Notes under the pieces: generated by a model
Databases searched by the model: none
Told to the model about the DNA's origin: nothing
The model's input: the letters and a program-made list of their open reading frames with translations, nothing else
Shown: piece by piece, positions 1,732 to 25,400 of the stretch
Position numbering within the stretch: the stretch's first letter is position 1
Layout of the letters: the number at the start of each line of letters is the position of its first letter
Position numbers and translations under genes: made by a program
From: Patescibacteria group bacterium
GTDB taxonomy: Bacteria > Patescibacteriota > Minisyncoccia > Moranbacterales > UBA2206
NCBI GenBank assembly: GCA_022709735.1
Contig: JAKLIG010000002.1
Coordinates: forward strand, 130,028 to 194,027
Length of the DNA stretch: 64,000 nt
Direction: 5' to 3'

Positions 1732-1739
1732 TTTTTTGT

Positions 1740-1950
1740 ACTTAATTAATTTAATTAGATTTTATCAGCTTGAGCGTTAAAAGTCAATTTATTTTGCAAA
1801 TATTTGCATTTATTTTATTTTTATATTATATCTAAATTAAGTTCATGCACATCTTATTAACATTCTTATCCACTTTTTACTTAGACTGATTTTTCTAGTT
1901 GTGATATACTTTTTTTACTGTCCAATTCTTTATTTAATTAACATAATAAA
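1740..1950. other. AT-rich dnaA upstream region with one DnaA-box-like 9-mer (TTATCCACT, 1866-1874); minor origin-associated region
   Basis: 8/9 match to TTATCCACA; very AT-rich spacer between divergent rpmH and dnaA. Confidence 0.3.
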
Positions 1951-3327
1951 ATGACCAACGAGGAGCTTTGGCAAACAGCCCTGGGGGAAATAGAGCTTTC
2001 AATTTCAAAGGCTAATTTCATCACTTGGTTTAAAAACACCGCCGTTCTTTCTATAAAAGACGGCCATGTGGTTGTTGGCGTGCCCAATGGTTTTGCCAAG
2101 GAATGGCTGGAAAATAAATATGACCTTTATATTTTACGCGCGCTTAAAAATATTCAAGAAGATATTAAATCTGTTTCTTGCCTAATTTCTTCCGGATCTC
2201 CCCAAAATTTCCCTAAAATAAGCCAAGAACCAACTGTAGACGCTATTCAAGCGCCGAAAAAAACAACTTCTTTTTTTGAAAAAAAAGCACCAATAAGCCA
2301 AGAAAGTAATCTTAATCATCGCTATACTTTTGAAAATTTCGTTATTGGAGGGAGTAATGAGCTTGCCCGCGCCGCCTGTTTTGCTGTTTCTCAAAGTCTC
2401 GGTAATGTTTATAACCCACTTTTCATTTATGGCGGGGTTGGGCTTGGAAAAACCCACCTTATTCAGTCTATTGGCAACGAAGCCCTAAGATTAAACCCAA
2501 AAATTAGAGTTAAATATATTTCTTCGGAAAGATTCACTAGCGACCTTATTGATTCCATAAAAAACCAAAAAATCAAGGAATTTAAGGAATATTACCAAAA
2601 AATCGACCTTCTTATTATCGATGATATTCAGTTTATTTCCGGCAAAGAAAAAACCCAAGAAGAGTTTTTCCATATTTTCAACTATCTTTATCAATTAAAC
2701 AAGCAAATTGTCCTTTCTAGCGACCGGGCGCCAAAAGCCATCCAAATTCTAGAGGAAAGACTTCGTTCGCGCTTTGAGGGCGGGATGATTGCTGATGTTT
2801 CTAAACCCGACCTTGAAACAAGACTAGCCATTCTCAAAAGAAAAGTAGCTCAAGATGGGGTAGAAATCACCGAAGACGCCCTAGAATTCATCGCCACAAA
2901 CATTAAAAATAACATTCGTGAACTAGAAGGCGCCCTAAACCGTGTTTCTGTGAGCGCCCAATTAACTAAAAAATCAGTAGATTCTGCTTATACAAAGCAA
3001 ATTTTGTCAGATATCATCTCTAGTGGAAAGAAAAAAGGCATTACTCATAAACACATAATTAAGGTTGTTTCTGATTTTTATGAGATAGATCCGAGTGATT
3101 TAATCGCTAAAAACAGAAAGCAAGAAGTGGTAAAGCCCCGTCAAATAGCGATGTTTCTTATGCGAAGCGAGCTTTCCTACTCTTATCCTGGGATTGGCGA
3201 TAAATTAGGCGGAAGAGATCATACTACTGCTATTCATGCTTACGAAAAAATTTCTGAAGCCCTAAAAATAGACGAAAAACTTACTGAAGAATTAGCCACC
3301 ATAAAAGATCTCCTTTATACAATTTAG
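1951..3327 (+). CDS. dnaA: chromosomal replication initiator DnaA
   Basis: 458 aa; Walker A GGVGLGKTHL; AAA+ boxes; C-terminal DNA-binding domain (HTTAIHAYEKI). Confidence 0.95.
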   Translation: MTNEELWQTALGEIELSISKANFITWFKNTAVLSIKDGHVVVGVPNGFAKEWLENKYDLYILRALKNIQEDIKSVSCLISSGSPQNFPKISQEPTVDAIQAPKKTTSFFEKKAPISQESNLNHRYTFENFVIGGSNELARAACFAVSQSLGNVYNPLFIYGGVGLGKTHLIQSIGNEALRLNPKIRVKYISSERFTSDLIDSIKNQKIKEFKEYYQKIDLLIIDDIQFISGKEKTQEEFFHIFNYLYQLNKQIVLSSDRAPKAIQILEERLRSRFEGGMIADVSKPDLETRLAILKRKVAQDGVEITEDALEFIATNIKNNIRELEGALNRVSVSAQLTKKSVDSAYTKQILSDIISSGKKKGITHKHIIKVVSDFYEIDPSDLIAKNRKQEVVKPRQIAMFLMRSELSYSYPGIGDKLGGRDHTTAIHAYEKISEALKIDEKLTEELATIKDLLYTI

Positions 3328-3339
3328 TCAAAATTGGGC

Positions 3340-3605
3340 ATATCCTGTGGATAATCTATTTATATCTACCCCCAAAACCCTGTGGCTAACCCTAAAAATA
3401 AAATGTTTTTAACCTGAAGTATTTTTAAAAAATCAAAAAATACTCCAAAACATACCCCACTAAAAACACCCTCGAAAAACACTTATCCCACACTTATCAA
3501 CACATATTTTAGTTTATATAAAGCAAATTCTAAACTTATCCCCCAAAATACCTTCCATAATAAATAGTAGTAAGTTTATATTAATTAATAAAATATTAAA
3601 ATACT
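3340..3605. other. candidate oriC: DnaA-box cluster plus AT-rich unwinding element between dnaA and dnaN
   Basis: Perfect box TGTGGATAA (3346-3354). Degenerate boxes TGTGGCTAA (3381-3389), TTATCCCAC (3484-3492), TTATCAACA (3495-3503) and TTATCCCCC (3535-3543). Followed by an extremely AT-rich stretch at 3560-3600 just before dnaN. Confidence 0.55.
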
Positions 3606-4763
3606 ATGAAACTAATTTGCACTCAAGAAAATTTTAAAAAGGCTATTTATAATTGTGAGAGAGTAGTTTCTAAAAAAAATACTCTACCAATTTTAAATAA
3701 CATTCTTTTTGAAGCCCAAAAGGGTAGTTTAAAGCTATCTGCCACAAACCTAGAAATAGGTGTTTCTTCAAAAATAGGCGCAAAAATAGAAAAAGAGGGG
3801 AAAATAACCATCCCAGTAAGAATTATTAGTAATTTTTCCACTAATTTGCCAGGTGGTGAAAATATAACTCTAGAGCTTTTGGATAATAATTTGAAAATAA
3901 AAAGCGGGGGAAATAGAGCTGTATTAAAGGGAATTTCTGCGGAAGATTTTCCTCTTATTCCTTCTAAAAAAACCGAAAACCTATTAGATTTGTCTAGTTT
4001 TGAGTTAAAAAACGCCATTTTAAAGGTTATGCCAGCAGTAGCCTTTAATGAAGCGAGGCAAGAATTAACTGGAATTAACCTTATTTTAAGGGAAAAAGAG
4101 CTTTGTTTTGCGGCCACTGATAGTTTTCGTTTGGCGGAATTTAGGCTTAAAATAGAGGAAAAAAACACAAATCCGGTTAATTATAGGGCTTTTATTGAAA
4201 AAAATGAAAATATTATCATTCCTTCAAATGTACTTCTAGAACTTAATCGAATTTTAGCGCCGGAAATTGAAACTAGAGTAAAAATTACAATTGAAGAAGG
4301 GCAGATATTTTTTGAGATTGATGGCACAAAACTAGTTTCCCGGCTTATTAATGGGAAATATCCGGAATATAAACATATAATGCCGACAAATTTCAAAACT
4401 AGGATAGTGGGCGAGAAGCAAGTTTTGCAAAACGCAATCAAAATGGCGAGTGTTTTTTCTTCTGGTGGATCAAATGAGATAACGCTAAAAATTGAGGCAG
4501 AAGAAAAGAAAATATCTATTCTATCCTCGAGTGCAGAAGCAGGAGAAAACACCGCAGAGCTCAAGTTTGACATTACTGGGCCGTCTCAAGAAGTGGTGTT
4601 TAATTCTAAATATCTTTTGGATGGAATTAATTCAATTTCTTCCGGTCAGGTGGCAATTTTATTAAATAGCGAGGCTACGCCAGTGGCCGTTCGGGAAATT
4701 AATGAAAAAACCGGCGAAGTTTTGGATGATTTCACTTACATCGTTATGCCGATTAAGAATTAA
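3606..4763 (+). CDS. dnaN: DNA polymerase III beta sliding clamp
   Basis: 385 aa, MKLICTQENFKKAI... three-domain clamp-like length; immediately after dnaA. Confidence 0.9.
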   Translation: MKLICTQENFKKAIYNCERVVSKKNTLPILNNILFEAQKGSLKLSATNLEIGVSSKIGAKIEKEGKITIPVRIISNFSTNLPGGENITLELLDNNLKIKSGGNRAVLKGISAEDFPLIPSKKTENLLDLSSFELKNAILKVMPAVAFNEARQELTGINLILREKELCFAATDSFRLAEFRLKIEEKNTNPVNYRAFIEKNENIIIPSNVLLELNRILAPEIETRVKITIEEGQIFFEIDGTKLVSRLINGKYPEYKHIMPTNFKTRIVGEKQVLQNAIKMASVFSSGGSNEITLKIEAEEKKISILSSSAEAGENTAELKFDITGPSQEVVFNSKYLLDGINSISSGQVAILLNSEATPVAVREINEKTGEVLDDFTYIVMPIKN

Positions 4764-7813: not shown

Positions 7814-7883
7814 AAAAAATTATTCTAACAAAAAAAGAGAACGCCAATGACGCTCCCTTTAATCATTTTTATGGTATAAGCTT

Positions 7884-10445
7884 TTACGGAATTGTTGTCT
7901 TTACGGAAATACTTTTTGAATCAGTGTCGCCGTTCTTATCTTCAATAGTCGCCTTAATTGAAAGGGTGGTATTTTTTTTAGAATCAGGAACGGAATAAGT
8001 ATAACTTAACGAAGAATCAGAGGAAGAGGTAATATTATCGCCCTCAATAGACAGGGTGATTTTTTTAACTCCGAAAGGTGCATTTGCTTTGGCTTTAATA
8101 GTAAAAGAAGATGAGGTGATCGTGTCTCCATTCGAAGGGGAAGAAATATCGACACTAGGTTTGAATTTTTTAAAATCATCCGCCTTGCATTCTTTTTCTG
8201 GTGTTGGTCGAGAAGAATAGCCGTCCTTTTTATCTAGCCACTTTTCAATAGCCTTTTCCCAATTCTTAAATTGCGGATCATCTTCTGGATCTTTTGGAGC
8301 ATCTCCGCGCGGATCATCTTTTTGAACATAATAAAGAATAGAATGAGCATCGGCAAATTTTTTCTTATCTCTTTCGGATTCTGGGCAATTATCATTTGCT
8401 AAGCAATAATCATTAGATCCGGGAATTTTGCAAACAGATATTTCTTTTTTATCATCCAGTTTTCCATCTAAAACATCCTTGCCAGTTTCTTCTTTTTCAT
8501 ATTTAGGAAACTCTTCAATATTATAATTAGCCAAGGCCTTGTCCATAAATTCCCGCCAAATCGGTGCAGCAACATAAGAACCATCGGCCCCCTTGGCCAT
8601 TATGGAATTGTCGTTATTTCCTGCCCAAACACCAGCGACAAGCGAAGGAGTATAGCCGATTGTCCAACCATCTCGCCATTCATTGGTTGTTCCAGTTTTA
8701 GCGGCGACTGGGCGGTCATCAAAACGCAAAGGATTTTTTTCGCCAAAGACTGGAGCGCGAAGATCATTGGTGGATAAAATATAATCTATCATTGACACAT
8801 ATTTTTCTTCAATCACTCTTTGTCCATCACTGGGTTTGTATTGTTCCAGCACATTCCCACTGCCATCCTCTACTTTTAAAATAGAAATAATTGAATGGTG
8901 GATTCCGCCGGTAGCAAAAGTAGAAAAAGCATTCACATGATCAATAAGTTTAACTTCACCTCCGCCAAGCACTAAAGATAAACCATAATCATCAGGATTT
9001 TTAAGCGTGGTTATTCCCATTTTGTGAGCAGTATCGATGGAGTTTTGTACGCCGGCTAAATATAATGTTTCAACGGCCGGGACATTAAGAGACATTGCTA
9101 GGGCGTCTTTCATTTTGAGAAGTCCGCGATTTTCGCCGTCATAATTTTTTGGATTATATTCTTTTCCGCTGTCAGTGGAAAAATTAGTATCCACATCCCA
9201 AAGATTAGTTTCGGGCGTATAACCTTTTTCAAAGGCAGTTAGATAAACATAAGGCTTGAAAGAAGAGCCGGGCTGGCGAAGGGCAGTAGCTACATTGAAA
9301 TTTCCTTCAAACTGGCAATTTTTTCCGGAGATGCAACCAGTTGGCGTTGCTTTTCCGAAATAATCTTTTGATCCAACCATCGCTAAAACTTGGCCAGTTT
9401 TTGGATCCATTGCTACAAGCGCTTGGTTGTTAGATTTATAAACTTTTGCATCTTTTTCGGAATTATTTTTTATCGCTTCTTCAGCAATTTTTTGTTTATC
9501 CCAATCAAGCGTGGTATAAACTTTGAGCCCGCCTTGTTCCACCATTTGCTCGCCGTATTTTTTTTCAAGCATTTCCTTGATGTACATCACAAAATGCGGA
9601 GCGCTGATATTATCCGAGAAGGGTTTTATTTTTGAAAAAACATCTGTTTCTTTGGCAGTGTTCGCTTGATCTTCGGTGATGCATCCAAGCTTAACCATTT
9701 GATCCAGAGCATATTCTTGGCGAGCTTTTAGATTTTCAGTATGACTGCCGTAAGGAGAATAATAAGAGGGTGCTTTGGGAAGTGAAGCTAAGAGGGCGGA
9801 TTCATCAAGCGTGAGCTCGCTGGCATGTTTGCCAAAAAAAGTTTGGGAGGCGGATTCTACGCCATAAGCATTAGAGCCATAAGGAATTTCATTGAGATAC
9901 ATCGCAAGAATTTCATTTTTTTCAAACTTTTGTTCGAGTTCAAGAGCCAGAATAACTTCTTTAATTTTTCGGGTAAAAGTTTTTTCCGAAGTAAGAAGAG
10001 ATTGTTTGATAAGTTGTTGAGTTATAGTTGACCCGCCTTGTGCGGCGCCAAGATTAAAAATGTCTTTGAACGCAGCGCGCAAAATACTTTTCGGCTGAAT
10101 GCCGATATGATTATAAAAAGCCTGGTCTTCGAGAGCAATGGCAGCAAACTTGATTGTGTCAGGCATTTGCTCGAAAGGAATTTCCGTTCTTTTTTCTTCG
10201 CCATGAACTTCATAAAGAAGATGATCTCCGGTGCGGTCGTAAATTTTGGTTGATTGCACGACAAAGCGCTTATTGAGATTTCCTGGGCTTGGAAGATCTT
10301 TGGCAAACCAAGCGAAAACACCGACTGTAAAAAGTAAAATAATTCCAAAGAAAATCAGTGACCATTTTCTCAAGAATTTCCAATTAATCCTAAAATGCTT
10401 TTTCCCAGAAAAATCACTCCTATTTCTATGCTTAAATATATACAT
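7884..10445 (-). CDS. class A penicillin-binding protein (glycosyltransferase + transpeptidase) with a C-terminal Ig-like extension
   Basis: GT51 motifs (EDQAFYNHIGI, GGSTITQQL); transpeptidase SSFKP (SxxK) and KTGTT. Possible own promoter TTGAAA-17-TAAAAT on the minus strand in the 10446-10514 gap. Confidence 0.9.
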   Translation of the reverse strand: MYIFKHRNRSDFSGKKHFRINWKFLRKWSLIFFGIILLFTVGVFAWFAKDLPSPGNLNKRFVVQSTKIYDRTGDHLLYEVHGEEKRTEIPFEQMPDTIKFAAIALEDQAFYNHIGIQPKSILRAAFKDIFNLGAAQGGSTITQQLIKQSLLTSEKTFTRKIKEVILALELEQKFEKNEILAMYLNEIPYGSNAYGVESASQTFFGKHASELTLDESALLASLPKAPSYYSPYGSHTENLKARQEYALDQMVKLGCITEDQANTAKETDVFSKIKPFSDNISAPHFVMYIKEMLEKKYGEQMVEQGGLKVYTTLDWDKQKIAEEAIKNNSEKDAKVYKSNNQALVAMDPKTGQVLAMVGSKDYFGKATPTGCISGKNCQFEGNFNVATALRQPGSSFKPYVYLTAFEKGYTPETNLWDVDTNFSTDSGKEYNPKNYDGENRGLLKMKDALAMSLNVPAVETLYLAGVQNSIDTAHKMGITTLKNPDDYGLSLVLGGGEVKLIDHVNAFSTFATGGIHHSIISILKVEDGSGNVLEQYKPSDGQRVIEEKYVSMIDYILSTNDLRAPVFGEKNPLRFDDRPVAAKTGTTNEWRDGWTIGYTPSLVAGVWAGNNDNSIMAKGADGSYVAAPIWREFMDKALANYNIEEFPKYEKEETGKDVLDGKLDDKKEISVCKIPGSNDYCLANDNCPESERDKKKFADAHSILYYVQKDDPRGDAPKDPEDDPQFKNWEKAIEKWLDKKDGYSSRPTPEKECKADDFKKFKPSVDISSPSNGDTITSSSFTIKAKANAPFGVKKITLSIEGDNITSSSDSSLSYTYSVPDSKKNTTLSIKATIEDKNGDTDSKSISVKTTIP

Positions 10446-10514: not shown

Positions 10515-11786
10515 TTATTTTATAAAGGAGGCTTTAAAATATTTTTTAATATAATGAATTGTTTTTTTATGATTATCCCCGCAAATAATAACGACAATAT
10601 CTCCAGGTTTAGCAAGTTGAGAAGCTCTTTTAATAGCATTTTCTTCAATTATTATGTTTTCAACTAAGCCTCTTTTTTTATTTTTTAAAATTCCTTTGGT
10701 GAAAATACTTGAAACTTCCCCAATTTCTCTTGTAATGCTACAATTTTTTCCTACAAAACGACCCCGATTTATGCCATCAATTTTATCATAGATGATTAAG
10801 TCATCATAGGAATTTGAAATAAACCGTCCTGTTTCGGTAATGACGCTGTCTGTTCTGTCTGGAGCTAGTCTCACAACGCCCAAGAGGCGATTAACTTTTG
10901 GATTTCGTTTTAATTTTTTCCCTAATTTTGCAATTTCGCGAAGGGAATATTTTTCATGAGCATAATCAACCAAAATTTTTACATTTTTTTTATTTTTTAA
11001 CATTGTTAATCTTCCGCCCGTTTCCTCTAGTTTATAATTTCTAATTAAGGTCAGGTCTTTTTTAGTAATTTTTTTGCCATTAAAAGCATATAGGCCACCA
11101 ATTATAAACATTAAATTAAAAATAGATGGGAGAAAAATCCCGCCAAATGTCCAATCAATTTTTTTTACATCAAGAATTTTTTCTATTTTATTTTTTGATT
11201 TGATAATAATAAAATTATCCAGAAGAGTTATGATTTCCCCGTTTTTTGATAAGTGGTTTTTTATGTTAAAGTACTTAAAATTTATTCCAACTGGAAGTAA
11301 AGTGGCTTTTCTTTTTTCGGGAACTTTTTTTAATTGCGAACAAACATATTTGTCGTCAGCATTAAAAATTATAAAGCCATGATCATTGATTCTTTTAAAA
11401 ATAAAACTTTTTGAATTAGCCAAATCGGATTTTTTTTGCAGGTGGCCCATTCCTAAATGGTCTTCGAAAACATTAGTGAATATTCCAATATCATGAAAAC
11501 CATATCCTAAGCCATGAACACCGTTTGAGCCTACGGAAGATTCTAAAATTGCTGTAAAATTAGGAAAATATTTTTTCATAGTAATTAGATATTTCCCTGG
11601 GCATACAGTCGGAGCTTTAACAAATAAATTTCTGCTATCTTGCAATGTGCTTTTTTGCTTTTCATTTATATAATGCCCGTCCGTATCTACTCTAAGGGTG
11701 GTTCCTCCTGAATTTTTTATTATATAACTCAACGCCCTTGTTATAGTTGTTTTCCCTTTTGTTCCTGTTGTTGATATTATTTTCAT
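10515..11786 (-). CDS. Mur-ligase-family protein resembling the C-terminal (M) domain of cyanophycin synthetase CphA
   Basis: STTGTKGKTTITR matches the Mur-ligase P-loop (GTNGKTT); ...GLGYGFHDIGIFTNVFEDHLG matches the CphA M-domain signature. Confidence 0.7.
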   Translation of the reverse strand: MKIISTTGTKGKTTITRALSYIIKNSGGTTLRVDTDGHYINEKQKSTLQDSRNLFVKAPTVCPGKYLITMKKYFPNFTAILESSVGSNGVHGLGYGFHDIGIFTNVFEDHLGMGHLQKKSDLANSKSFIFKRINDHGFIIFNADDKYVCSQLKKVPEKRKATLLPVGINFKYFNIKNHLSKNGEIITLLDNFIIIKSKNKIEKILDVKKIDWTFGGIFLPSIFNLMFIIGGLYAFNGKKITKKDLTLIRNYKLEETGGRLTMLKNKKNVKILVDYAHEKYSLREIAKLGKKLKRNPKVNRLLGVVRLAPDRTDSVITETGRFISNSYDDLIIYDKIDGINRGRFVGKNCSITREIGEVSSIFTKGILKNKKRGLVENIIIEENAIKRASQLAKPGDIVVIICGDNHKKTIHYIKKYFKASFIK

Positions 11787-11796
11787 GATTATTAAG

Positions 11797-12807
11797 TTAA
11801 CTGAATAAATAATTTATTAAATTTTTATGGAGATCTCTTGATTTCCCTCGTGTCGGACTGCTATGAAATTGTATATCGGGAAAAGAGCCGTTAATTTCAA
11901 CTACAATCCCATCATTTTCTGTTAAAGGTTTTGTTATATCTTTGGATATAATATCTATTCCTATTATAGGAAGTTTTAAGTTTTCTGATATTTCCTTTGA
12001 CATATTAATAAAATATGGATGAACACTTTCCGTTACATCGATATATTCTCCTCCATCAAATCCGCTAAAACATAAAGGAATTTTTTTATTTTTTGGAATA
12101 ATTGAATTTAAATTGTAACCTTCTGATGCTAAAAAACGTTCAGTTTTTTCTGAAATTTTTATTTTTTTCAAACGAGCCTTCTTTCTTCTTTCTTTGTTGT
12201 ATTTATTTTCCCAGTTTATAAGTTCTCGAACTGTTCTTTTCCCATCTCCTGAAACATAAGCAGGTAAATTTTTTGTTGCAGCATAGGATCCATCAGCTAT
12301 ATAGGTTATCCTGTAATAATCTCCAGAAATATGTTTTTCCACTATTACTTTATTGTCAGTTTTTTTTGCTATCCTAAAGGAATTAATTAAGAGTTTCTTT
12401 GTAGTTACATTAATTGTAATTCCTTTTCCTTCAGCTGCTCCTATGGGTTTTACCACCACAGGAAATCCAAGCGATTTTATTGCAGAATCCAGCTCTTCTA
12501 ATTTGGAAATGGTTTTGCTTGGAGCAACCGGATATCCTAATTTAGAAAGAAAGTCTTTTGCTGTATGCTTATTTCGAGCAATAGCCATCCCTACCGGATT
12601 TGTTTTAGAGGTCATTGTTTTGTTTAACCAGATAATTTTATTTCCTCGCTTAAATATATATAAATTTTTTTTGCTGAAAATTCTATATACAGCTATATTA
12701 TTTTTTAATGCACATAAAATAAGCTTTTTTGAAATCCCTGCGGGAGATTTTTTTTTATTTTTGAAAGTATCAAGAGTAATTTTTTCAGAACATTTCAATA
12801 TTTTCAT
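11797..12807 (-). CDS. ATP-grasp ligase resembling the central ATP-grasp (G) domain of cyanophycin synthetase CphA
   Basis: PVVVKPIGAAEGKGITIN, VIVEKHISGDYYRI, PAYVSGDGKRTVRELI, IIGIDIISKDITKPLTENDGIVVEINGSFP and C-terminal HSSPTRGKSRDLHKNLINYLF parallel the CphA G-domain including the ...PRDV...LF tail. Confidence 0.7.
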   Translation of the reverse strand: MKILKCSEKITLDTFKNKKKSPAGISKKLILCALKNNIAVYRIFSKKNLYIFKRGNKIIWLNKTMTSKTNPVGMAIARNKHTAKDFLSKLGYPVAPSKTISKLEELDSAIKSLGFPVVVKPIGAAEGKGITINVTTKKLLINSFRIAKKTDNKVIVEKHISGDYYRITYIADGSYAATKNLPAYVSGDGKRTVRELINWENKYNKERRKKARLKKIKISEKTERFLASEGYNLNSIIPKNKKIPLCFSGFDGGEYIDVTESVHPYFINMSKEISENLKLPIIGIDIISKDITKPLTENDGIVVEINGSFPDIQFHSSPTRGKSRDLHKNLINYLFS

Positions 12808-12822: not shown

Positions 12823-14217
12823 TTATTTATTTACATCAATTAAAAACTTCCCCAAATTTTTCTTACCGATTATTATCGGCATTTTTAAATTCGAGCGATC
12901 TATTATGGAAACTTTTGCTAAAAATTCTATATTATCCATAATAATATTTATATTTACCATCGGTCGATATGTTGTTCCATGGGAAGAATGAATAATGGCA
13001 GTATCGGCTAAATCAGGAATATTTTTAAAAATTTCTTTTCTTTGCTCGGGAGTTAAATTTTTAATTTGTTCATAGCTAATATTCAAATTCTCATATTCTA
13101 AAACCGTATTTTCAAAACCCAACTGTTTAGCTAGCTCTGTATCAATTGAAGAAAATCCTGCTCCAGTGTCAATTTTTGCTTCTACCTCAATTTCTTTTCC
13201 ATCTTTTCCAATGAGTTTCACTTTCTCTACTGTGCCGATGACGCGCCGGCCGGAAATTCCTTCCAATTCTTCTTCGATTTCTCCTCCAAAAAGATCTTTT
13301 CCGACGCGGACGCCTTTTTCGACGGTTTTTATTTTTATTCCGGCTGCTTTCTTGAGTCTTTCTTTGAGGCCGGAAAGATTGGCAATTTGAATGGAAAGTC
13401 CTGGGCGGGCGTTGAGCTCGATAATGGTCGGGCCTTTGATTTTATCAATCGCAATGTCAGCGCCTAAAAAACCAAGACCGGAAAGTTCCTGCGCTCGCAC
13501 AGCTAATTTCAAAATATCATTCCAATAAGGAATTCTAATTCCAGATAACAAAAGGCGAGTATCGGGAGCATATTCGATAAATTTATTTTTCCCCGAAACG
13601 GCGGTAGTAGTTGTGCCAGTAGCCATGTCGATGCCGACCCCAATAGCCCCTTGCTGAAGATTGGCTTTGCCGGAAGAATTTTTGGTTGGAAGGCGAAGCA
13701 TTGCCATAAGGGGAACTTTGTTAAAAACAATTACTCGAATGTCCGGGATGCCTTTGTAACAATAGGGCTTGAAAAGTTTTAGAAGTTGCAATCTTTCTTC
13801 AAAAAAAGCGATGTCCGGCGTTCCGGAAAGAGAAAAAGAACCGTCCAAAATATTTCGAATGTGCGCTTTTAAATCTTCTATAGAAACAAGAGAACGATCA
13901 GCTTTTATCCACACATCAGTTTGATTCTTCTTTTTTCCATAAACCACTAAAATTCCTTCTCCACCGAAACCGCGATTTGGTTTCAGGGCAAAACTTTCTG
14001 GCAATGTTTGCCAGTCAAAATTTTCGAGCTCCGCATAGTTTCTTATTTTTGCCAAAAGTTGTGGGACAGCTAAATTATTATCTTTAAGAATTTTTTTGCT
14101 AAGAAGCTTGTTATCTGCGATTTTTTTGGCGCGCGCCAAATTGAACGGCCTGATATATTCCAGGTTTCGAGAATTCATTCCAAGAATTTGCCGGCTAAGT
14201 TTTAGAAACTCAAACAT
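12823..14217 (-). CDS. RimK-like ATP-grasp (alpha-L-glutamate-ligase-like) fused to a C-terminal retropepsin-like aspartic peptidase domain
   Basis: ATP-grasp core (KPNRGFGGEGI, IIELNARPGLSIQ); C-terminal ~150 aa carries KIDTGAG (D-T-G-A catalytic motif of clan AA peptidases). Confidence 0.65.
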   Translation of the reverse strand: MFEFLKLSRQILGMNSRNLEYIRPFNLARAKKIADNKLLSKKILKDNNLAVPQLLAKIRNYAELENFDWQTLPESFALKPNRGFGGEGILVVYGKKKNQTDVWIKADRSLVSIEDLKAHIRNILDGSFSLSGTPDIAFFEERLQLLKLFKPYCYKGIPDIRVIVFNKVPLMAMLRLPTKNSSGKANLQQGAIGVGIDMATGTTTTAVSGKNKFIEYAPDTRLLLSGIRIPYWNDILKLAVRAQELSGLGFLGADIAIDKIKGPTIIELNARPGLSIQIANLSGLKERLKKAAGIKIKTVEKGVRVGKDLFGGEIEEELEGISGRRVIGTVEKVKLIGKDGKEIEVEAKIDTGAGFSSIDTELAKQLGFENTVLEYENLNISYEQIKNLTPEQRKEIFKNIPDLADTAIIHSSHGTTYRPMVNINIIMDNIEFLAKVSIIDRSNLKMPIIIGKKNLGKFLIDVNK

Positions 14218-14221
14218 AAAA

Positions 14222-14872
14222 TTATAAATGTTTCATTATTTTTCGAAACCGAAAATATTCGCTCACACGAAGCCCGGTCCATTTTCCAAGAAGAATATTA
14301 ATTGGAATAGTGAGGATAACCACCCAAGGATAAAGAGCCAAAAAATGAATGAGAATTTTTGAGCTAGCAATGAAAAATCCTAAAATTGAAATAATCAAAG
14401 TTTCAATGGCCAAAAAAATTGCAGCTTTGTCGCCTTTTTCAATTTGAACGGCGATGAATTTTTCAACTATTGTGATCATAATGAGAATTGGAAAAATAGA
14501 AACCGCTGCGAGACCTGTTCTTTTGAATTCTCCGCCAATCACTAAAATTCCCAAAATTAAGAAAGCGACGATGGTGAGCATGATAGCCACTCTTGGAAGA
14601 TAAAGCAGGCGGAATGGCTTCAAAACAAAACGCATCAGCATCCCGGTAAAAATAACCGTGACAAAAATCGCGATGCCATATTTGAGACCGTTTGTAGCCA
14701 AAAAGGCGAAAGTTACAATGAGCGGAGCATAAATTCCAAAAGCTTTAATACCAACCACTTGTCGAAGAAATGCGATAAAAGTGGCGATGATTGGAAGCAT
14801 CAAAATCAAAATAACCGTGGTGAAAGGCACGCCTTGATTTATGAAAAAGTTAATAATAGGGCTAACATTCAT
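14222..14872 (-). CDS. 7-transmembrane integral membrane protein (partner of the ATP-grasp/peptidase)
   Basis: 216 aa with seven hydrophobic helices; 4-nt gap to the downstream ATP-grasp gene. Confidence 0.6.
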   Translation of the reverse strand: MNVSPIINFFINQGVPFTTVILILMLPIIATFIAFLRQVVGIKAFGIYAPLIVTFAFLATNGLKYGIAIFVTVIFTGMLMRFVLKPFRLLYLPRVAIMLTIVAFLILGILVIGGEFKRTGLAAVSIFPILIMITIVEKFIAVQIEKGDKAAIFLAIETLIISILGFFIASSKILIHFLALYPWVVILTIPINILLGKWTGLRVSEYFRFRKIMKHL

Positions 14873-14889: not shown

Positions 14890-15393
14890 TTAATGGTTTA
14901 AATTATTTAATTTCCGGCTATTTAAATGACAGATGGCAATCGCAATGGCGTCCGCTGTGTCATCGGGTTTCGGCAGTTTTTCCAAATGCAAAATATTTTT
15001 TGTCATCATTTGCATTTGTTTTTTCTCGGCTCGGCCATATCCGGTGATCGCTTGCTTTACTTGGAGCGGAGTATAACTCGAAACTCTAACATTATTTTGC
15101 TTTAAAGTCAAGAGAATTGCGCCTCTGGCTTGGGCCACAGTGATGATTGTTTTTTGATTTTTAAAAAAGAAAATTTCTTCCACTCCCGCTTCCTGTGGTT
15201 TATATTTTGCAATTATCTTTTCAATATCCCTCGAAATTTCCAAAATCCTTTCCGCGTCAGTTTTTTGAGGCGAAGTAGCAATATGCCCATAAGAAACCGG
15301 TTCTATTTTTCCGTTTTTTTCTTCTAGTATCGCCCAGCCAGTGGTGGCGGTGCCAGGATCAATTCCTAAGACGCGCAAGTTATCATTTTTCAT
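14890..15393 (-). CDS. ruvC: crossover junction endodeoxyribonuclease RuvC
   Basis: MKNDNLRVLGIDPGTATTGWAILEE... catalytic Asp in GIDPG; 167 aa. Confidence 0.85.
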   Translation of the reverse strand: MKNDNLRVLGIDPGTATTGWAILEEKNGKIEPVSYGHIATSPQKTDAERILEISRDIEKIIAKYKPQEAGVEEIFFFKNQKTIITVAQARGAILLTLKQNNVRVSSYTPLQVKQAITGYGRAEKKQMQMMTKNILHLEKLPKPDDTADAIAIAICHLNSRKLNNLNH

Positions 15394-15538: not shown

Positions 15539-16153
15539 CTAATTGGGTATGATAGAAAAATATCCGACGGGTGTTTTAATAATTTTACCGCCCCAAGACT
15601 CAACTTCTTTTTTTGAATAGCGCTTTATAGCGGTGAAATCTTCCATTATAAAACTATCATTTTTGATACAATTAATTTTTAAATTAATTGATTTAAAATA
15701 TTCTTGAGCCAAGCCATTATCAAATTCTTCTCCGTATACAGAAATAATGATGACTTTGCCAAGCTCCTTCATTTTCGCAATGGATTTGTCCTGTTCTGGA
15801 ATGTATCCCAATGTGTTGTTGAGACAAATCACATAATCAAAATGAGGCAAGGCCGGAGGATTAGTAATATCGCCATGAATAAAATTTACACAGAGACCTG
15901 CTATGGCGATTTTTTGTTTTGCGAGTTCTACTAAAGAAGCTTCAATTTCAAGGCCAGTAATTTTCAAATCAGGACGAACTTCAAGTAAACGAATAGCTCT
16001 TGCTCCATCCATACTGCCAACTTGCAAAACACGAGCATTTTTTGGGAGCATAAGACGTAGCAGGTCAATTTCTTTGAGCCAATTATCTCTATTTGGTTTT
16101 GGTATATTTTCTAAAACGTCACAGTTTACATACACATCTTTTAATGAGGGCAT
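15539..16153 (-). CDS. class I SAM-dependent methyltransferase (cargo of the insertion)
   Basis: Motif I VLQVGSMDGARAI; acidic post-I LEIE; 204 aa. Confidence 0.7.
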   Translation of the reverse strand: MPSLKDVYVNCDVLENIPKPNRDNWLKEIDLLRLMLPKNARVLQVGSMDGARAIRLLEVRPDLKITGLEIEASLVELAKQKIAIAGLCVNFIHGDITNPPALPHFDYVICLNNTLGYIPEQDKSIAKMKELGKVIIISVYGEEFDNGLAQEYFKSINLKINCIKNDSFIMEDFTAIKRYSKKEVESWGGKIIKTPVGYFSIIPN

Positions 16154-16216
16154 ATTGAATTAATGAAAAAATGAGTTTTTACAAATTATCGAAAATTTCT
16201 TCTATTTTAATTTTTT

Positions 16217-16344
16217 CTAGTATCGCCCAGCCAGTGGTCGCTGTGCCGGGATCAATTCCCAAGACGCGCAAGTTATCATTTTTCATAGCTTAATTATACT
16301 TCCAAAACGAGTTTTTTAAAAGTTGTTTGAGACAAAAAAATAAC
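16217..16344. repeat. direct repeat copy 2. It carries a fossil ruvC start fused to a fossil yebC 3' end (16172-16200 copies the yebC stop region).
   Basis: Minus-strand reading from ATG (cat at ~16288-16290) gives MKNDNLRVLGIDPGTATTGWAILEKIKIEEIFDNL*: ruvC N-terminus joined to the yebC C-terminal residues EEIFDNL. Confidence 0.8.
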
Positions 16345-16562
16345 TCAAGAAGGTTATTAATAAAAATTTTTATTTATTTCGCTTAACATATGAGTATATC
16401 AAATGTTTGCCGAAGCGAAGAGAATATAAATAAAAGTGAGGGAGTTTTGCGTTTCTTTGCGTTTGGTCCGTCCGCCTTGACAGATTGATTGTTTTTCGCT
16501 TTACTACTACGATGTTTAGTATGTATTTTTGATAAATTATACCAATCAAAGGAGGTGAGAAA

Positions 16563-16785
16563 TTTGGAAAAATTTACACGCGAACATCTTTTAAATGTAT
16601 GTAAGTTAGGACAACGCGCAGAAACCTGCAGTTATTTAGTTCTTGGAGTTGATGGTATGGAGTGTGCTAAAGGATCGGCAACTTCTGGACTTACAACAGA
16701 AATCTTTTTGAAAAGAGAGCAGGGGTCCATGACGGCTATGGGCGATAACTGTGAAGGAAGAGAGGGGTCGGTCAAAAACGCTTGA
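16563..16785 (+). CDS. small Cys-containing hypothetical protein in a locally higher-GC segment
   Basis: Strong SD aaggagg followed by TTG/ATG; ...NVCKLGQRAETCSYLVLGVDGMECAKG...; composition noticeably more GC-rich than the flanks. The start is uncertain; the track ORF begins at 16489. Confidence 0.4.
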
Positions 16786-16852
16786 GCAACGCTTGGGCCA
16801 AATCAATTTGCCCGTTCGTTAATGTTGATATACAACACACGAGCGGGCTTTT

Positions 16853-17660: not shown

Positions 17661-19463
17661 TTATATTTTCAAAATCAGATAATTTAAGAAAGAATTTGTT
17701 TTTGTCCAAATATTTTCTGAAAAATTTAGAGCCCAGTGTTTTTTGTTTTCAGGCTTTGTAAAAGTATAAAAATTTTCTTGGAATCTTAAATTTTCTGCAC
17801 CTAAAACCCGTTTATTCTGATCTAATAATTTTTCTGGTAAATTTATATTATGGCTTGAATAGGCTAATTTTTGGCGGTTTTTTTGCCTTTTTTGCCAATC
17901 CGATGAAAGGCTGTATTTGCCAAGATTGGTTTGGATTTCGGAAGCGGAAATATTAAAATTTGTTTCTTCTTGTGGAAGAGAAGGAGTTGCTATTTTATTT
18001 ATTTCTGTTGTAGAGAAGCCCAAATTGGGCGTCTCTACATTTCCGGCATTCCACACCCATTTATTATTTTTATTTTTTTCATAAATTTCATCTTCTGCGA
18101 TTTTATCTTTTTTTCGATCATATTTTATTTTTTGCACGACTTTTCCGGATGGATCACGAAGCTCGATTTTAGTTTTTTCATTTCCTAGCGTGAAAGCGCA
18201 AATTTTTTTAGTGAGCTTTTTTGTTTTGCCTTTTTTGATTTTGAAATCTTCTCGAATCGGGTGATTGACTAACTTCTCTTTGCCGGTAGCAATCGACCAA
18301 TTTTTAAGATTAATTTTGTCTTTAGATTCATTTTTAATTTCAATCCACTCATTTTTTGTGTCGCTTCCTTTTGGATTAGGCGAGATGCTTTTTATTCTAA
18401 TTTTTGGAGCATTATATTTTTCAACTTTAACTTCGAATTCATAAACCTTATCTTCTCCATCTCCGGTGATTTTGAGGCTACCTTTATATTTCCCAGTTTT
18501 TTCATATTTATGCTTGGTTTTTTTGAGATAGCTTTTATGGTCGTCGCCGAAATTCCAAGTAAATTTTTTTGCGTCATCATCAGCCAAAACATCGAAATAG
18601 GCATAAGTATTTTTGTATATTTTTTTAGGTAAGATTATTTTTCCTGACAAAATTTTGTCAAAACTATTTTCTCCACCGGGAGTAGATAGCGATGTCCAGC
18701 GCCAGGAAGAGCCATCGAAAGAAAAGGAATGAGCAGATTTTGTTGAGGAATATTTTTGGCTATCAACCAAGTTGCCATTTTTATCATGAAGAAAAACAGT
18801 ATCGCCGTTAGAATCATTGTTTAGGGAAAACGACCCATAAAAAACATAAAAGTTTCCATTTTTTTCATGTTTGGAAATTTTCCCTTTTGTTCCTTTGGAA
18901 TCTTTTATGACCCAGTCAGAGAAATCAATTTCTTTTCCGCTCGAATTTATTATTTCCACAAATTCCTCCTCTCCATTTTTGGTATCCGGCGCGGGATAAA
19001 TCTCATTGATTTTTATTCCAGAATAATTTGGTTTTTCTTCTTCTTCGGAATCGTCATCTTCTTCCCAGTTTATACTGTCAATAATTATTCCAGAATCCGT
19101 ATTGCCAAGAATTATGGCAATACCATTGTCTTCAGAAATAACACTACTTTTACTCGTATTGGCCCAAAGATAAATTTCTTTGGCAGGGATAATATCCTTA
19201 CTTCCGAATGATTTTATGCTAGTTTTTGTTCCAGTGGATGCTTTTTTAACAAGTCTATATCCATCTAGTTTAATTTCCTTGTCTGTTGTGTTGGTAATTT
19301 CTATAAAATCTTCTTCAGTTTTTCCGGGTCCTCCTGTATATTGCACATTTGTAATTTTTAAAACTGGCTCGGCCAGACAAATTTTTCCCAAAATAAAAAA
19401 GCTAGCTAAAATAACCAGCCCATAAATAAAAAAACAATAAAAATTATTTTTGTTTTTATCCAC
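17661..19463 (-). CDS. membrane-anchored secreted protein with three lamin-tail-domain (LTD)-like repeats
   Basis: N-terminal TM; repeated motifs EDFIEITNTTDKEIKLDGYRL, EEFVEIINSSGKEIDFSDWVI, NEWIEIKNESKDKINLKNWSI. Confidence 0.55.
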   Translation of the reverse strand: MDKNKNNFYCFFIYGLVILASFFILGKICLAEPVLKITNVQYTGGPGKTEEDFIEITNTTDKEIKLDGYRLVKKASTGTKTSIKSFGSKDIIPAKEIYLWANTSKSSVISEDNGIAIILGNTDSGIIIDSINWEEDDDSEEEEKPNYSGIKINEIYPAPDTKNGEEEFVEIINSSGKEIDFSDWVIKDSKGTKGKISKHEKNGNFYVFYGSFSLNNDSNGDTVFLHDKNGNLVDSQKYSSTKSAHSFSFDGSSWRWTSLSTPGGENSFDKILSGKIILPKKIYKNTYAYFDVLADDDAKKFTWNFGDDHKSYLKKTKHKYEKTGKYKGSLKITGDGEDKVYEFEVKVEKYNAPKIRIKSISPNPKGSDTKNEWIEIKNESKDKINLKNWSIATGKEKLVNHPIREDFKIKKGKTKKLTKKICAFTLGNEKTKIELRDPSGKVVQKIKYDRKKDKIAEDEIYEKNKNNKWVWNAGNVETPNLGFSTTEINKIATPSLPQEETNFNISASEIQTNLGKYSLSSDWQKRQKNRQKLAYSSHNINLPEKLLDQNKRVLGAENLRFQENFYTFTKPENKKHWALNFSENIWTKTNSFLNYLILKI

Positions 19464-22410: not shown

Positions 22411-25400
22411 CTAAAGATCTGTTACTCTTTCCACTTCTTCCAGAGAAGTTTCGCCTTCCAAAACTCGCAAAATTCCATCTTGCGTCATGGTGAGCATGCC
22501 AAGTTCAACTGCTTTTTCTTCGAGCTCGGCTGTGATGGCACCTCTAGTGATAAGATCTTGAATTTCACGAGAAATTTGGAAAACTTCGCTTACAGTCATC
22601 TGACCCTTGTAGCCAAGTCCATTGCATTTCGGACAGCCTTTCGGTTTATATATTTCCAAAACTTTCGGAATTTCCACGCCTGATTTTTGACTAATAGTTT
22701 TCAAAACTTTTTCAATTTTTTCTTTTTCTTCTGCGCTTGGAGAAATTTTTTCTTTGCAATCGCAAAGTCTTCGCACTAATCTTTGCGCCATAAAAGCATT
22801 GACGGCGGTGGCAATGTCTGATGGAGCCACGCCCATATTGATCATTCGAGCGACAGCGCCAGCAGCGTTGTTAGTGTGGATTGTTGACAAAACCAAATGG
22901 CCAGTAAGAGAGGCTTGCACGGCCACTTGCGCAGTTTCGTCATCTCGAATTTCACCGATCATCATAATGTCTGGGTTTTGGCGAAGAAGGGCACGAAGAG
23001 CGGTGGCAAAAGTATAGCCTTCCTTTTCACTTACAGGAGTCTGTAAAATCCCAGGTAGTTGATATTCAATTGGATCTTCCACGGTGATTATTTTTACTTC
23101 GGGCTTGTTGAGAAGACTAAGGATACTATAAAGCGTGGTGGTTTTTCCAGATCCAGTCGGACCAGTATTAAGAATGACTCCATTAGGTTTTTTAATCTCA
23201 CTTATTATTTTTTCCAAATTTTCTTTTCTAATCCCAAGTTTTGTAAGATCTAGTTCTATCGAAGATCCACGAAGAAGGCGCATCACAATTGTTTCACCAT
23301 AACCGCCGAGAATTATTGAAATACGCACATCAATATTTTTTTCGGTTATTTCCTTAATATCATCATCAAACATTATGCTAAAGCGACTGTCAATCACGCC
23401 TTGACGAACTTCTGTTTTTACGCCAGAAAGCATTTTTATTTCTCCTAAAAGTGCTGGATATTCATTGAGTGGAAGTGTGGCAACATTTTGCAAAATTCCA
23501 TCGATTCGAAATCGTATTTTCACATCATCTTTTTCCGGTTCGATATGAATGTCGCCAACATTAAGAATTGTGGCAGCAGAAAAAATAATTTTATTAATAT
23601 CCATTGTCTTTGAAGCGCGCAAAACTTCTTCTAATTTTTTGAAATCTACTATATTTTCTTTAGCGCTTGAATAATTTTTTTCTTCGATTAGAATTTTTTT
23701 GCCAAGTGTTTGCGACATCAATTTTTCATAAATGCTTTCCAAAAATTCTCCTTGTCCGGTAGCTTCCTCGACTTCATCGATAGAGGTGACACCGCTAATT
23801 GCTTTCAAAATCCCGTCTTGAAGCATGGTGATCATACCAGATTCCAAGGCGGCAATGGCCAGATCAGTTTCGCCAGCCATTTCCAAAATTAATTTTTCAA
23901 TATCTTCATTGATTGTGAGAACTTCAAAAATTCCAATTCGCCCCTTGTATCCCAATCCACTGCATTTTGGACAGCCTTTTGGCCGATAAAGTTTTTCGAT
24001 ATTTTTTGGAATTTCTATTTTGGATTTCGGGGAGATAATTGAAAGAATTTTTTGAATGGATTCAATTGATTCCTTAGCGGGAACATAACTTTCTTTGCAG
24101 TCACAAAGTTTTCGCACCAAACGCTGACCGATTATGGCATTAATTGCAGGGGACATCAAAGTTGGCTTCACTCCAAGCTCAACGAGCCGTGGAATAGTTC
24201 CGATAGCATTATTAGTGTGGAGTGAAGATAAAACTAAATGTCCAGTGAGAGAGGAATTTACCGCAATGTCAGCGGTTTCATCGTCTCGAATTTCACCAAC
24301 TAAAATTACATCTGGGTCTTGGCGGACGATAGCGCGAAGCCCTTGGGCGAAAGTATAACCCCTTTCTTTTTCTACTTGGGTTTGAGAAATGCCTGATAAC
24401 TCATATTCAATTGGATCTTCAATAGTGATTATTTTTTTATCCGGTGTATTTAATTTGTTGATGATGGAATAAAGTGTTGTAGTTTTCCCCGATCCAGTTG
24501 GTCCGGTGTTCAAAATCATTCCGTTTGGTGCTTGCATTTCTTTTTGGACTATTTCATAAGCCAAGCCCTGAAGTCCTAAATTTTCTACGCTCACCTTGAT
24601 TGAATCTGGATCGAGAAGTCTCATTACAACTGATTCGCCGAAATTTCCTGGAATAACGGAAACACGAAGGTCAATTTTTTTGTCAGCTAAATTTATTTCG
24701 AAAGTTCCATCCTGAGCAATGTCGCGAAGATTGAGTTTCATTCCAGACATTAACTTTATGCGGGAAAGAATAGTGTTAAAAACATTGAGTGGCAAAAAGG
24801 CTATGTCCTGAAGCGTTCCGTCAATGCGATACCTAAGACGAAGTTTGTTTTCTTGTGGCTCAATATGAACATCGCTCGCGCCAAGCTTGTAGGCGCCAGC
24901 CATCATAATATTCAAAATTTGAGTGGTTGGCAGTTCGCCGATGCGCTGTTTCAGAGTAATAAGATCTTTCATTTCTTTCTCAAATTCGGAAAGTTCTTCT
25001 CCGCTAAGATTCAAGCTCATTTGATCCAAAACATCCACAAAAACAATCTGTTTGTATTTTTCAAAAACTCGGTTCAAGTTTGACGCAGAGACAACAAAAA
25101 TTTTTATCTGCCAGCCTTTTTCTTGCTTGAGTTTTTCCAAGAAATCTGTAGCTTCTTTATTTTCCGGATCAGAGGATATGATTGTAATCACTCTTCCATT
25201 TCGATGGATCACTGCTATCCGAAATTTCCGCGCTTCTTCTTCAGAGAGAAGTCGAATATCATCTTTAGAAATTGGGATGAGATTAGTATCGATATAAGGG
25301 AGATTAAGCTCGGCAGCCAGTTTTGAAGCTGTTTCTTCTTCCTCTTTTTTTCGGAATTGAGAAAGAATTTTAGCAGTCTTTGTTGTTTCCTGGATCTCAT

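Follow-up and report, generated by a model that had tools for sequence, protein, structure and literature searches.

A fused ATP-grasp ligase-peptidase and its seven-helix membrane partner in Candidatus Moranbacteria, a putative variant of the Rlo system

A 64,000-nucleotide stretch of a genome of Candidatus Moranbacteria, tiny uncultured bacteria of the CPR, here called the window, encodes a seven-helix membrane protein followed by a single polypeptide in which an ATP-grasp ligase is joined to a retropepsin-like peptidase. We lean, with modest confidence, towards reading this module as a CPR variant of the Rlo cell-envelope stress system, with a two-protein core that would be docked at the membrane and would build and trim an acidic peptide for the cell envelope. 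The gene anatomy, the folds, and the conservation of residues and neighbourhood are established for the module below.

A conserved neighbourhood of ligase, retropepsin and 7TM protein, invoked in the original prediction, does exist, and since 2025 it has had a name, RloABC, and phenotypes in Pseudomonas aeruginosa (Lormand et al., mBio 2025, PMC12239564). P. aeruginosa RloA cuts runs of at least eight glutamates. Deletion of rloA1-3 leads to death in hypo-osmotic medium, altered cell shape and sensitivity to beta-lactams, phenotypes that are suppressed by deletion of rloB or rloC; in Pseudomonas, tolerance of antibiotics, biofilm formation and cell shape are all influenced by the system (PMC12239564). 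The Vibrio cholerae orthologues belong to the VxrAB cell-wall stress regulon.

Results

Organisation of the locus

The 216-aa membrane protein (14222..14872) and the 464-aa fusion (12823-14217, stop codon at 12823-12825) were both found on the minus strand exactly as predicted, separated by a 4-nt gap (14218-14221). The fusion consists of an ATP-grasp ligase domain of the RloC type, related to RimK (aa 1-310; 13288..14217), an acidic linker, GGEIEEELEGISGRR (aa 311-325; 13243..13287), predicted from the translation and pLDDT to be disordered, and a retropepsin-like aspartic peptidase domain of the RimB/RloA type (aa 326-464; 12826..13242). Two accessory ligase genes follow on the same strand after 15 and 10 nt, encoding a 336-aa ATP-grasp protein (11797..12807) and a 423-aa Mur-ligase-like protein (10515..11786). 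The downstream neighbour, also on the minus strand, is a class-A PBP gene (7884..10445) with transglycosylase, transpeptidase and Big_7 domains according to Pfam. Upstream, 17 nt from the membrane protein gene, lies ruvC (14890..15393, minus strand; NF000711, 219 bits), which is functionally unrelated to the module and is probably co-transcribed with it.

Promoter-like sites were found on the minus strand near ruvC (15427-15400) and in the 69-nt gap 5' of the PBP gene (10499-10471). A terminator-like hairpin with a 12-bp stem and a T run (7834..7860, minus strand) sits directly 3' of the PBP gene and, as a consensus match only, possibly marks the 3' end of the transcription unit. Profile matches bore out the proposed identities of the flanking genes (RuvC, CphA-like ATP-grasp, CphA-like Mur ligase and class-A PBP). 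The claim that all gaps measure 4-17 nt is right for the four junctions from ruvC to the second accessory ligase and wrong for the PBP gene, with its 69-nt gap and promoter-like site.

The ligase domain belongs to the RloC type

The N-terminal ATP-grasp domain was confirmed by PF14397 (ATPgrasp_ST), which matched residues 17-290 with an E value of 4e-69 and 233 bits against a cutoff of 31. TIGR02291 aligned over 282 of its 317 model positions with 284 bits, under its curated cutoff of 314. By these profile matches the domain is a member of the RloC type at the family level, not the equivalog level, and the domain calls for both the fusion and the 7TM protein are far beyond chance. The original description of the ligase as RimK-like survives as a statement of relationship but not of subfamily, as rimK_fam (TIGR00768) reached 39 bits where its cutoff is 143 and aligned with no more than aa 233-275, while the profile search returned no match to the RimK_N domain. 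Nor did the ATP-grasp domain group with D-Ala-D-Ala ligase or glutathione synthetase.

The peptidase domain retains catalytic and polyglutamate-binding residues

The C-terminal part of the fusion (aa 324-463) matched PF05618 (3.8e-8) and NF052264, RloA3 (3.4e-9; 37 bits against a cutoff of 210). Of the two profiles suggested for the fusion, TIGR02291 therefore matched as described above, whereas TIGR02281 (clan_AA_DTGA) gave no match at E below 0.01. The predicted aspartic peptidase signature is present as KIDTGAG at aa 348-354, in which the catalytic DTGA (aa 350-353; 13159..13170, minus strand) aligns with the DTGA of RloA-type structures. The late hydrophobic-hydrophobic-Gly motif of clan AA is represented by IIIG at aa 448-451, with G451 invariant, and the modelled domain has the retropepsin fold.

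Residues K348, D350, R418 and R441 of the fusion align with K46, D48, R114 and R137 of RloA, and the spacing from the catalytic aspartate to the two arginines is 68 and 91 residues in the fusion and 66 and 89 in RloA. The catalytic residues of both domains and the equivalents of the polyglutamate-binding basic residues were invariant in all 83 fusions compared, with position 348 being K or R. Hydropathy analysis detected neither a signal peptide nor a hydrophobic segment in the fusion; being fused to the ligase and lacking a signal peptide, the peptidase is assigned to the cytoplasm.

The linker is modelled with a pLDDT below 50 for aa 313-325. The fusions retain its motif, GGE[IV]EEE[IV]E[ED]ISG, and 82 of the 83 have four to six acidic residues there; stand-alone RloC-like proteins lack the motif. 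The linker was rejected as a standard RimB or RloA substrate, since it has at most three contiguous glutamates where RimB needs five to six and RloA eight. With so few contiguous glutamates, it is speculation that the protein's own peptidase might cut the acidic linker and leave an acidic C-terminus to prime the ligase.

The membrane protein corresponds to the 7TM half of RloB

The seven-helix assignment of the 216-aa protein was supported by PF14402 (7TM_transglut; E 6e-31, 108 bits) and by hydropathy, which indicated about seven transmembrane segments, an uncharged N-terminus and a C-terminal tail rich in K and R. With the positive-inside rule, the N-terminus is predicted to lie outside and the C-terminus inside. 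The RloB profile NF052267 aligned over no more than positions 313-507 of 508 and scored 79 bits, its cutoff being 900; only the 7TM half of RloB is present and the extracellular, inactive transglutaminase domain is missing. Some relatives do bear extracellular PKD or transglutaminase-like domains on their 7TM proteins.

Within Moranbacteria the 7TM protein is 72-92% identical and about 90 positions never vary, among them the intramembrane pairs E137-K138 and E157-T158. Conserved loops predicted to face the cytoplasm lie at aa 85-94, 143-149 and 196-209. Comparison of its AF2 model (pLDDT 68) with solved structures found no homologue. Natural single polypeptides exist that join 7TM to ATP-grasp (P0261) or transglutaminase to 7TM and ATP-grasp (P0268), and these place the 7TM C-terminus, and hence the ligase, in the cytoplasm.

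The core is conserved across CPR lineages and is followed by a variable cassette

Conservation was assessed in 82 related CPR loci from several CPR classes, using a locus scan built from a 7-sequence alignment. The predicted conservation of the neighbourhood was evident, as in 77 of 79 related loci the gene immediately before the fusion encodes the 7TM protein, and this adjacency persists in lineages that have lost the adjacency to ruvC and PBP genes. After the fusion come zero to four extra ligase genes, in 25 compositions among 59 loci, and this cassette usually ends at a class-A PBP gene. Of 54 loci, 48 have a PBP gene no more than 8 kb downstream, 45 of them on the same strand, and in Dojkabacteria loci this adjacency is lost; ruvC lies upstream in 65 of 76, and yebC and ruvC are equally conserved neighbours. 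PBP adjacency is thus no better conserved than that of the unrelated ruvC, so synteny was rejected as proof of a PBP link. Overall, the domain identities and the conserved neighbourhood of the original prediction stand and the 4-17 nt gap at the PBP gene does not, whereas a short chain, its attachment to an envelope component and a functional link to the PBP are putative parts of that prediction.

In relatives, the core is fused to or adjoins a MATCAP carboxypeptidase, ligases resembling TTL or RimK, a Mur-type ligase or a YdjC deacetylase. All of these enzymes have peptide C-termini or amino sugars as substrates. The literature searched contained nothing on bacterial MATCAP together with ATP-grasp, and no description of the CPR module in its fused, transglutaminase-less form with a variable ligase cassette.

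The accessory ligases resemble the G and M domains of CphA

Accessory ligase 1 matched TIGR02068 over model positions 153-471 (250 bits), and accessory ligase 2 over positions 481-860 (190 bits), each against a cutoff of 850. The closest PDB relatives of the first are CphA1 (4e-41) and CphA2, and the second has no PDB relatives under an E value of 1e-3 other than CphA1 M domains; the two are accordingly homologues of the CphA G and M domains. The pair was rejected as a true cyanophycin synthetase, being split, without the N domain and far under the cutoff. Accessory ligase 1 sits in the variable cassette slot seen in relatives, and a CphA-M-like gene occupies the identical slot in two other loci (L085 and L006). 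The CphA-M-like gene also adjoins RimB-RimK in L087; its occurrence with a separate RimB and RimK pair in a Saccharimonadales genome ties this ligase to acidic-peptide chemistry.

Discussion

For the substrate, product, export and envelope link of the module, we infer the following scheme. The 7TM protein would dock the ligase on the cytoplasmic side of the membrane, as strict adjacency and the natural 7TM-ATP-grasp fusions suggest. From its family membership, the ATP-grasp domain is expected to activate a carboxylate as an acyl-phosphate and to add amino acids serially, most likely glutamate, giving an acidic peptide or tail; this glutamate specificity is extrapolated from RimK, RimB and RloA. 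Two fusion molecules would come together via their peptidase domains, since retropepsins act as homodimers to which each chain contributes one Asp. Conservation of the residues for catalysis and glutamate binding suggests that the paired peptidase cuts the acidic chain, setting its length or releasing it, and that it may also stimulate the ligase, as RimB does RimK. The accessory ligases, in the window the CphA G and M homologues, may extend or branch the chain, and since the accessory set differs between genomes the product would be lineage-specific. It would then be handed to or through the 7TM protein and act in the cell envelope. Counted against reading the module as an Rlo variant are the profile scores, which lie under the NCBIfam cutoffs for TIGR02291, RloA3 and RloB, and the PBP adjacency, which is no stronger than that of ruvC and is lost in Dojkabacteria.

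A bolder reading, which we regard as doubtful, takes the locus for a previously unrecognised route to a cell-surface polymer, in which a conserved core of the fusion and the 7TM protein, acting as translocase or dock, serves a fast-evolving mix-and-match cassette. The cassette enzymes would be the ATP-grasp, Mur-type, TTL-like, MATCAP and YdjC proteins, and their products lineage-specific non-ribosomal peptides, probably anionic and possibly branched in the manner of cyanophycin, delivered to the wall beside the class-A PBP. If so, the locus would be for peptides what diversity loci are for O-antigen or capsule.

It is unlikely that the module instead edits protein tails in the cytoplasm as RimK and RimB do, with the ligase extending a soluble protein, ribosomal protein S6 for instance, at its C-terminus, the fused peptidase removing the added residues, and the 7TM protein only localising or regulating the pair. 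Although ligase and peptidase are paired as in the Rim systems, the ATP-grasp domain is of the RloC type and not RimK, the domain order is reversed relative to RimBK, and the membrane partner is near-constant and sometimes fused to the ligase. In addition, none of the 320 open reading frames in the window encodes an acceptor with an acidic C-terminus like that of S6 or LysW.

Rather less probable is the decoration of peptidoglycan precursors, in which the ligases would add cross-bridge or side-chain residues to lipid II or nascent peptidoglycan, the 7TM protein would present the lipid-linked substrate and the PBP would use the modified precursor. Enzymes that decorate precursors include the D-aspartate ligase Aslfm and the amidotransferase MurT/GatD. 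The PBP gene after most cassettes would fit such a role, as would a ligase number and type that vary like cross-bridge enzymes between Gram-positive species, the Mur-type ligases and YdjC sugar deacetylases in the cassettes, and the cell shape and beta-lactam phenotypes of Rlo mutants. However, cross-bridge synthesis has no use for an invariant, polyglutamate-tuned peptidase, the PBP gene is preceded by a promoter-like site of its own, and its synteny, no better than that of ruvC, is absent from Dojkabacteria loci.

The name Rlo derives from hypo-osmotic sensitivity, and its authors raised glutamate/polyglutamate homeostasis as a possibility (PMC12239564). Here, a 7TM sensor of membrane or envelope state would switch between glutamate polymerisation and polyglutamate hydrolysis in the cytoplasm, altering the osmotically active solute. 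A ligase and hydrolase within one cytoplasmic protein, and the extracellular domains on some relatives' 7TM proteins, are consistent with this; but no external sensor domain is present on the 7TM protein of the window, a simple buffer leaves little place for the accessory ligases, MATCAP and YdjC, and the peptidase is periplasmic in Pseudomonas, leaving such buffering a distant prospect. That the genes are mere neighbours and not one system is already very unlikely, for although CPR genomes pack unrelated genes tightly and ruvC and yebC are conserved equally, operon structure and genetic suppression tie the same three families together in Proteobacteria, the families also occur as single fused polypeptides, and the 7TM gene and the fusion stay adjacent in lineages where the ruvC and PBP genes no longer adjoin them.

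The 7TM domain, the ligase and what appears from its sequence to be a catalytically intact, polyglutamate-tuned peptidase always occur together, in several hundred species-level CPR genomes. Read as an Rlo variant, the CPR version suggests that both the external transglutaminase-like domain and secretion of the peptidase are dispensable. A single 464-aa soluble protein with both predicted activities is convenient for biochemistry, and the variable ligase cassette and recurring PBP neighbour provide testable leads to the product. Should that product be a wall-associated peptide polymer, it would count as a new component of the envelope, in a very large section of the bacterial tree that is poorly understood.

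Comparison with known systems

Iyer, Abhiman, Burroughs and Aravind (Mol Biosyst, 2009), a study cited in PMC12096838, reportedly predicted a neighbourhood of ATP-grasp, 7TM/inactive transglutaminase and aspartic peptidase across bacteria, and are said to have proposed it for peptide or amide modifications of proteins or polysaccharides. The module has the same domain trio, but its fused CPR form with a cassette differs.

The accessory pair jointly aligns to CphA1 residues 153-860, covering the G ATP-grasp and M Mur-ligase-like domains, and CphA1 is the closest solved relative of both proteins. Unlike CphA1, the pair is divided between two genes where the G and M domains meet, lacks the N-terminal domain and is embedded in an Rlo-type locus.

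RimB stimulates RimK fourfold in making poly-alpha-Glu, and a hybrid of the two, RimBK, exists and is active (Little et al., JBC 2025, PMC11957791). The Rim systems likewise pair or fuse a cytoplasmic ATP-grasp glutamate ligase with a polyglutamate-specific, retropepsin-like endopeptidase, and stimulation of polymer synthesis by the peptidase is a RimB feature. In contrast to the window fusion, however, their ATP-grasp is of another subfamily, they have no 7TM partner and their target is ribosomal protein S6, which ends in Glu-Glu. The peptidase is N-terminal in RimBK and C-terminal in the fusion; this order and the ATP-grasp subfamily rule out a RimBK hybrid.

RloABC shares with the module the same three families (TIGR02291/PF14397 ATP-grasp, PF14402 7TM and PF05618 retropepsin), a peptidase with DTGA and the polyglutamate-coordinating basic residues, and the gathering of all genes in one operon-like cluster. 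It differs in that its host is a gammaproteobacterium and not a CPR bacterium, and in that RloA of P. aeruginosa stands alone and is secreted, whereas the window peptidase is cytoplasmic, without a signal peptide, and forms one polypeptide with an N-terminal ligase; the two systems may therefore work differently. The window 7TM protein also lacks the inactive transglutaminase domain, all NCBIfam Rlo scores of the window proteins are under the curated cutoffs, and extra ligase genes follow the CPR core.

Gene organisation of the locus

The ORF of the 216-aa 7TM membrane protein lies at 14222-14872 on the minus strand of the window and is followed after 4 nt by that of the 464-aa fusion protein (12823-14217, minus strand). 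A profile match placed ruvC upstream of the 7TM gene, and homology to cyanophycin synthetase identified, downstream of the fusion, homologues of the CphA G-domain and then the CphA M-domain, after which comes a class-A PBP, all on the minus strand. The original prediction had described a 216-aa 7TM protein and, 4 nt on, a 464-aa ligase-peptidase carrying KIDTGAG (DTGA), an anatomy that ORF calls and profile matches bear out. It had also proposed gaps of 4-17 nt. Those between ruvC, 7TM, fusion, G-like and M-like genes are 17, 4, 15 and 10 nt, but the PBP gene is preceded by a 69-nt gap with a promoter-like site, and is followed by a terminator-like hairpin.

The likely origin of replication is a few kb from the locus, with yidC (minus strand), then dnaA and dnaN (plus strand), at 460-4763; the same holds in the related loci L001 and L003. 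A class-I methyltransferase gene (15539-16153, minus strand) and a stretch of roughly 700 nt with poor coding character (16154-16852) separate yebC from ruvC. No match to the methyltransferase was found in any of 84 related loci (L001-L084), where yebC and ruvC usually adjoin, and the two elements are probably a local insertion. A 1010-aa protein with two tandem T2SSE (type II/IV secretion or pilus ATPase) modules and an MshEN domain (22411-25443, minus strand) is kept upstream in relatives. A second Mur-ligase-family ORF (39085-40395, plus strand) matches the CphA-M-like protein weakly (E 5e-9); we guess that it is a peptidoglycan Mur ligase of the ordinary kind.

Domains and conserved residues of the fusion protein

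Residues 17-290 of the fusion match ATPgrasp_ST (PF14397, E 4e-69), and the protein matches TIGR02291 'alpha-L-glutamate ligase-like' with 284 bits. Residues 324-463 match PF05618 and RloA retropepsin models, with DTGA at residues 350-353. No signal peptide or hydrophobic segment was found in the fusion. In an AlphaFold model made from 60 homologues (mean pLDDT 82), residues 313-325 are disordered and connect two folded domains.

Conservation was scored over 83 fusions, down to approximately 45% identity. K79, E140, D159, R161, D254, E267 and N269 of the ATP-grasp domain and DTGA, R418, R441 and G451 of the peptidase domain are invariant, indicating that both predicted activities are under strong purifying selection. 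Position 348 is lysine or arginine throughout. Alignment to the RloA-type structure 9g58 identifies K348, R418 and R441 as counterparts of RloA K46, R114 and R137, which coordinate polyglutamate; R114 and R137 are required for activity in vitro and complementation in vivo. With these residues retained, the substrate of the fusion is likely to be acidic. Three more distant fusions in the alignment (P0143, P0152 and P0190) have lost the catalytic aspartate (NTGD, DSSN and NTTR) and retain the ligase residues; in such lineages the peptidase domain may have no role beyond binding or regulation.

The linker of the window fusion, GGEIEEELEGISGRR (residues 311-325; 13243-13287, minus strand), is acidic, and the motif GGE[IV]EEE[IV]E[ED]ISG is conserved among fusions despite the predicted disorder. 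Only fused proteins have the motif, which is absent from stand-alone ligases. The linker might act as a pseudo-substrate or a site of self-cleavage for a peptidase preferring glutamate runs, but its contiguous glutamates are too few for the known RimB/RloA rules.

The 7TM protein

For the 216-aa protein, the Pfam match is 7TM_transglut (E 6e-31), and the match to NCBIfam RloB covers the C-terminal 7TM half of RloB. Hydropathy indicates about seven membrane segments; the N-terminus is uncharged and the C-terminal tail has five lysine or arginine residues, so the N-terminus is predicted to lie outside and the C-terminus inside. Its structural model is moderately confident (pLDDT 68), and no relative among solved structures was found.

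Longer 7TM proteins of about 530 aa occur in five loci, and both of those scanned, from Kerfeldbacteria (L069, 8410-10017) and Falkowbacteria (L079, 3377-4960), have a PKD domain as their extracellular N-terminus, where RloB has its transglutaminase-like domain. A 600-aa protein upstream in the window (17661-19463, minus strand) also has a PKD domain, plus a lamin-tail domain.

Relatives and conservation of the neighbourhood

A Candidatus Moranbacteria MAG encodes a protein with 100% identity to the fusion. Identity to the fusion is 70-84% in the 120 top-ranking clusters, nearly all of which have the two domains (PF05618 recorded in 117). An exhaustive search over cluster representatives at 50% identity returned 2143 relatives, including 432 at E ≤ 1e-30. 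Pfam scans of ten longer representatives, together with the lengths of the relatives, revealed the fusion itself (about 465 aa), the fusion with a MATCAP carboxypeptidase (about 790 aa), with YdjC or with a second ATP-grasp, single polypeptides of 7TM and ATP-grasp or of transglutaminase, 7TM and ATP-grasp, and stand-alone ligases of about 310 aa, assigned only from their length and the range matched.

Scanning a single genome for each species gave over 500 loci, and the 80 top-scoring ones are all CPR-type (Moranbacteria, Paceibacterota, Kerfeld-, Falkow- and Dojkabacteria, and others). Many MAGs (those of L005, L006, L012, L047, L055 and others) are recorded as 'uncultured Bdellovibrionales', 'Micavibrio' or 'Fimivivens' despite a CPR-type locus; gene content and 60-70% identity to Moranbacteria proteins suggest that these labels are wrong.

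The neighbourhood was examined in 82 non-redundant loci by searching their six-frame ORFs with the window proteins. The 7TM gene is directly upstream of the fusion in 77/79 loci, ruvC is upstream in 65/76, an ATP-grasp gene is directly downstream in 57/74, and a class-A PBP lies within 8 kb downstream in 48/54 (same strand in 45). Dojkabacteria loci showed no ruvC or PBP adjacency; L072, L073 and L078 from this group keep the 7TM-fusion pair, and no 7TM ORF was found upstream of the fusion in L084.

Between fusion and PBP stand zero to four extra ATP-grasp genes of CphA-G-like, RimK/GshB-like and TTL/YheCD-like types, with YdjC, MATCAP or a Mur-type ligase added in some loci. With gene classes assigned coarsely by best phmmer match, this cassette (10515-12807, minus strand, in the window) has 25 distinct compositions in 59 loci from the set L001-L085. 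When loci are paired by fusion proteins of 80% identity or more, 14 of 20 pairs have unlike cassettes. The cassette therefore turns over rapidly beside a stable core. The window's Mur-type (CphA-M-like) ligase recurs in the same slot of L085 and L006. In a Saccharimonadales locus (L087, 8001-10658) the gene for such a ligase sits immediately before unfused RimB-like and RimK genes, without a 7TM gene, and on a Magasanikbacteria contig (L086) one is paired with a RimK/GshB-like ATP-grasp; the CphA-M-like ligase seems to go with acidic-peptide systems generally.

Proposed function

In the mechanism that we favour by a modest degree, the ligase, docked at the membrane by the 7TM protein, would build an acidic chain, dimerised peptidase domains would trim or release it, accessory ligases would diversify it, and the product would act in the envelope. 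The original prediction of membrane-linked chain building and trimming for the envelope is reasonable but unproven. Three things point to the putative envelope link: the phenotypes known for Rlo, an obligatory partner in the membrane, and the recurrence of a PBP gene nearby. The PBP gene is weak support because ruvC is equally conserved as a neighbour. Cytoplasmic editing of protein tails is the foremost alternative, albeit an unlikely one; decoration of a peptidoglycan precursor is less likely again, and an osmotic buffer of glutamate is improbable. That the genes are merely adjacent, as the equal conservation of ruvC might suggest, is very hard to credit.

Comparison with Rlo and Rim systems

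RloABC of Pseudomonas aeruginosa comprises secreted retropepsins (RloA1-3), an inactive-transglutaminase/7TM protein (RloB) and a cytosolic ATP-grasp (RloC). Cells that lose the RloA peptidases die under hypo-osmotic conditions, have shape defects and are sensitive to beta-lactams, and these effects are suppressed by losing RloB or RloC (Lormand et al., mBio 2025, PMC12239564). Polyglutamylation of ribosomal protein S6 is the work of the related RimK/RimB pair; RimB cuts runs of at least 5-6 glutamates and stimulates polyglutamate synthesis, and a RimB-RimK hybrid with an N-terminal peptidase is known (Little et al., JBC 2025, PMC11957791). No description of the CPR form was found in the searchable literature. 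RloABC is the closest described system. The ligase and 7TM domain of the window module are Rlo-type; its peptidase, cytoplasmic and physically coupled to the ligase, recalls Rim systems. Two features that define Rlo, secretion of the peptidase and a transglutaminase domain, are missing from the module, and it departs from RimBK in two defining features as well, ligase subfamily and domain order. The module is therefore classed as a variant of the Rlo kind that belongs to neither family.
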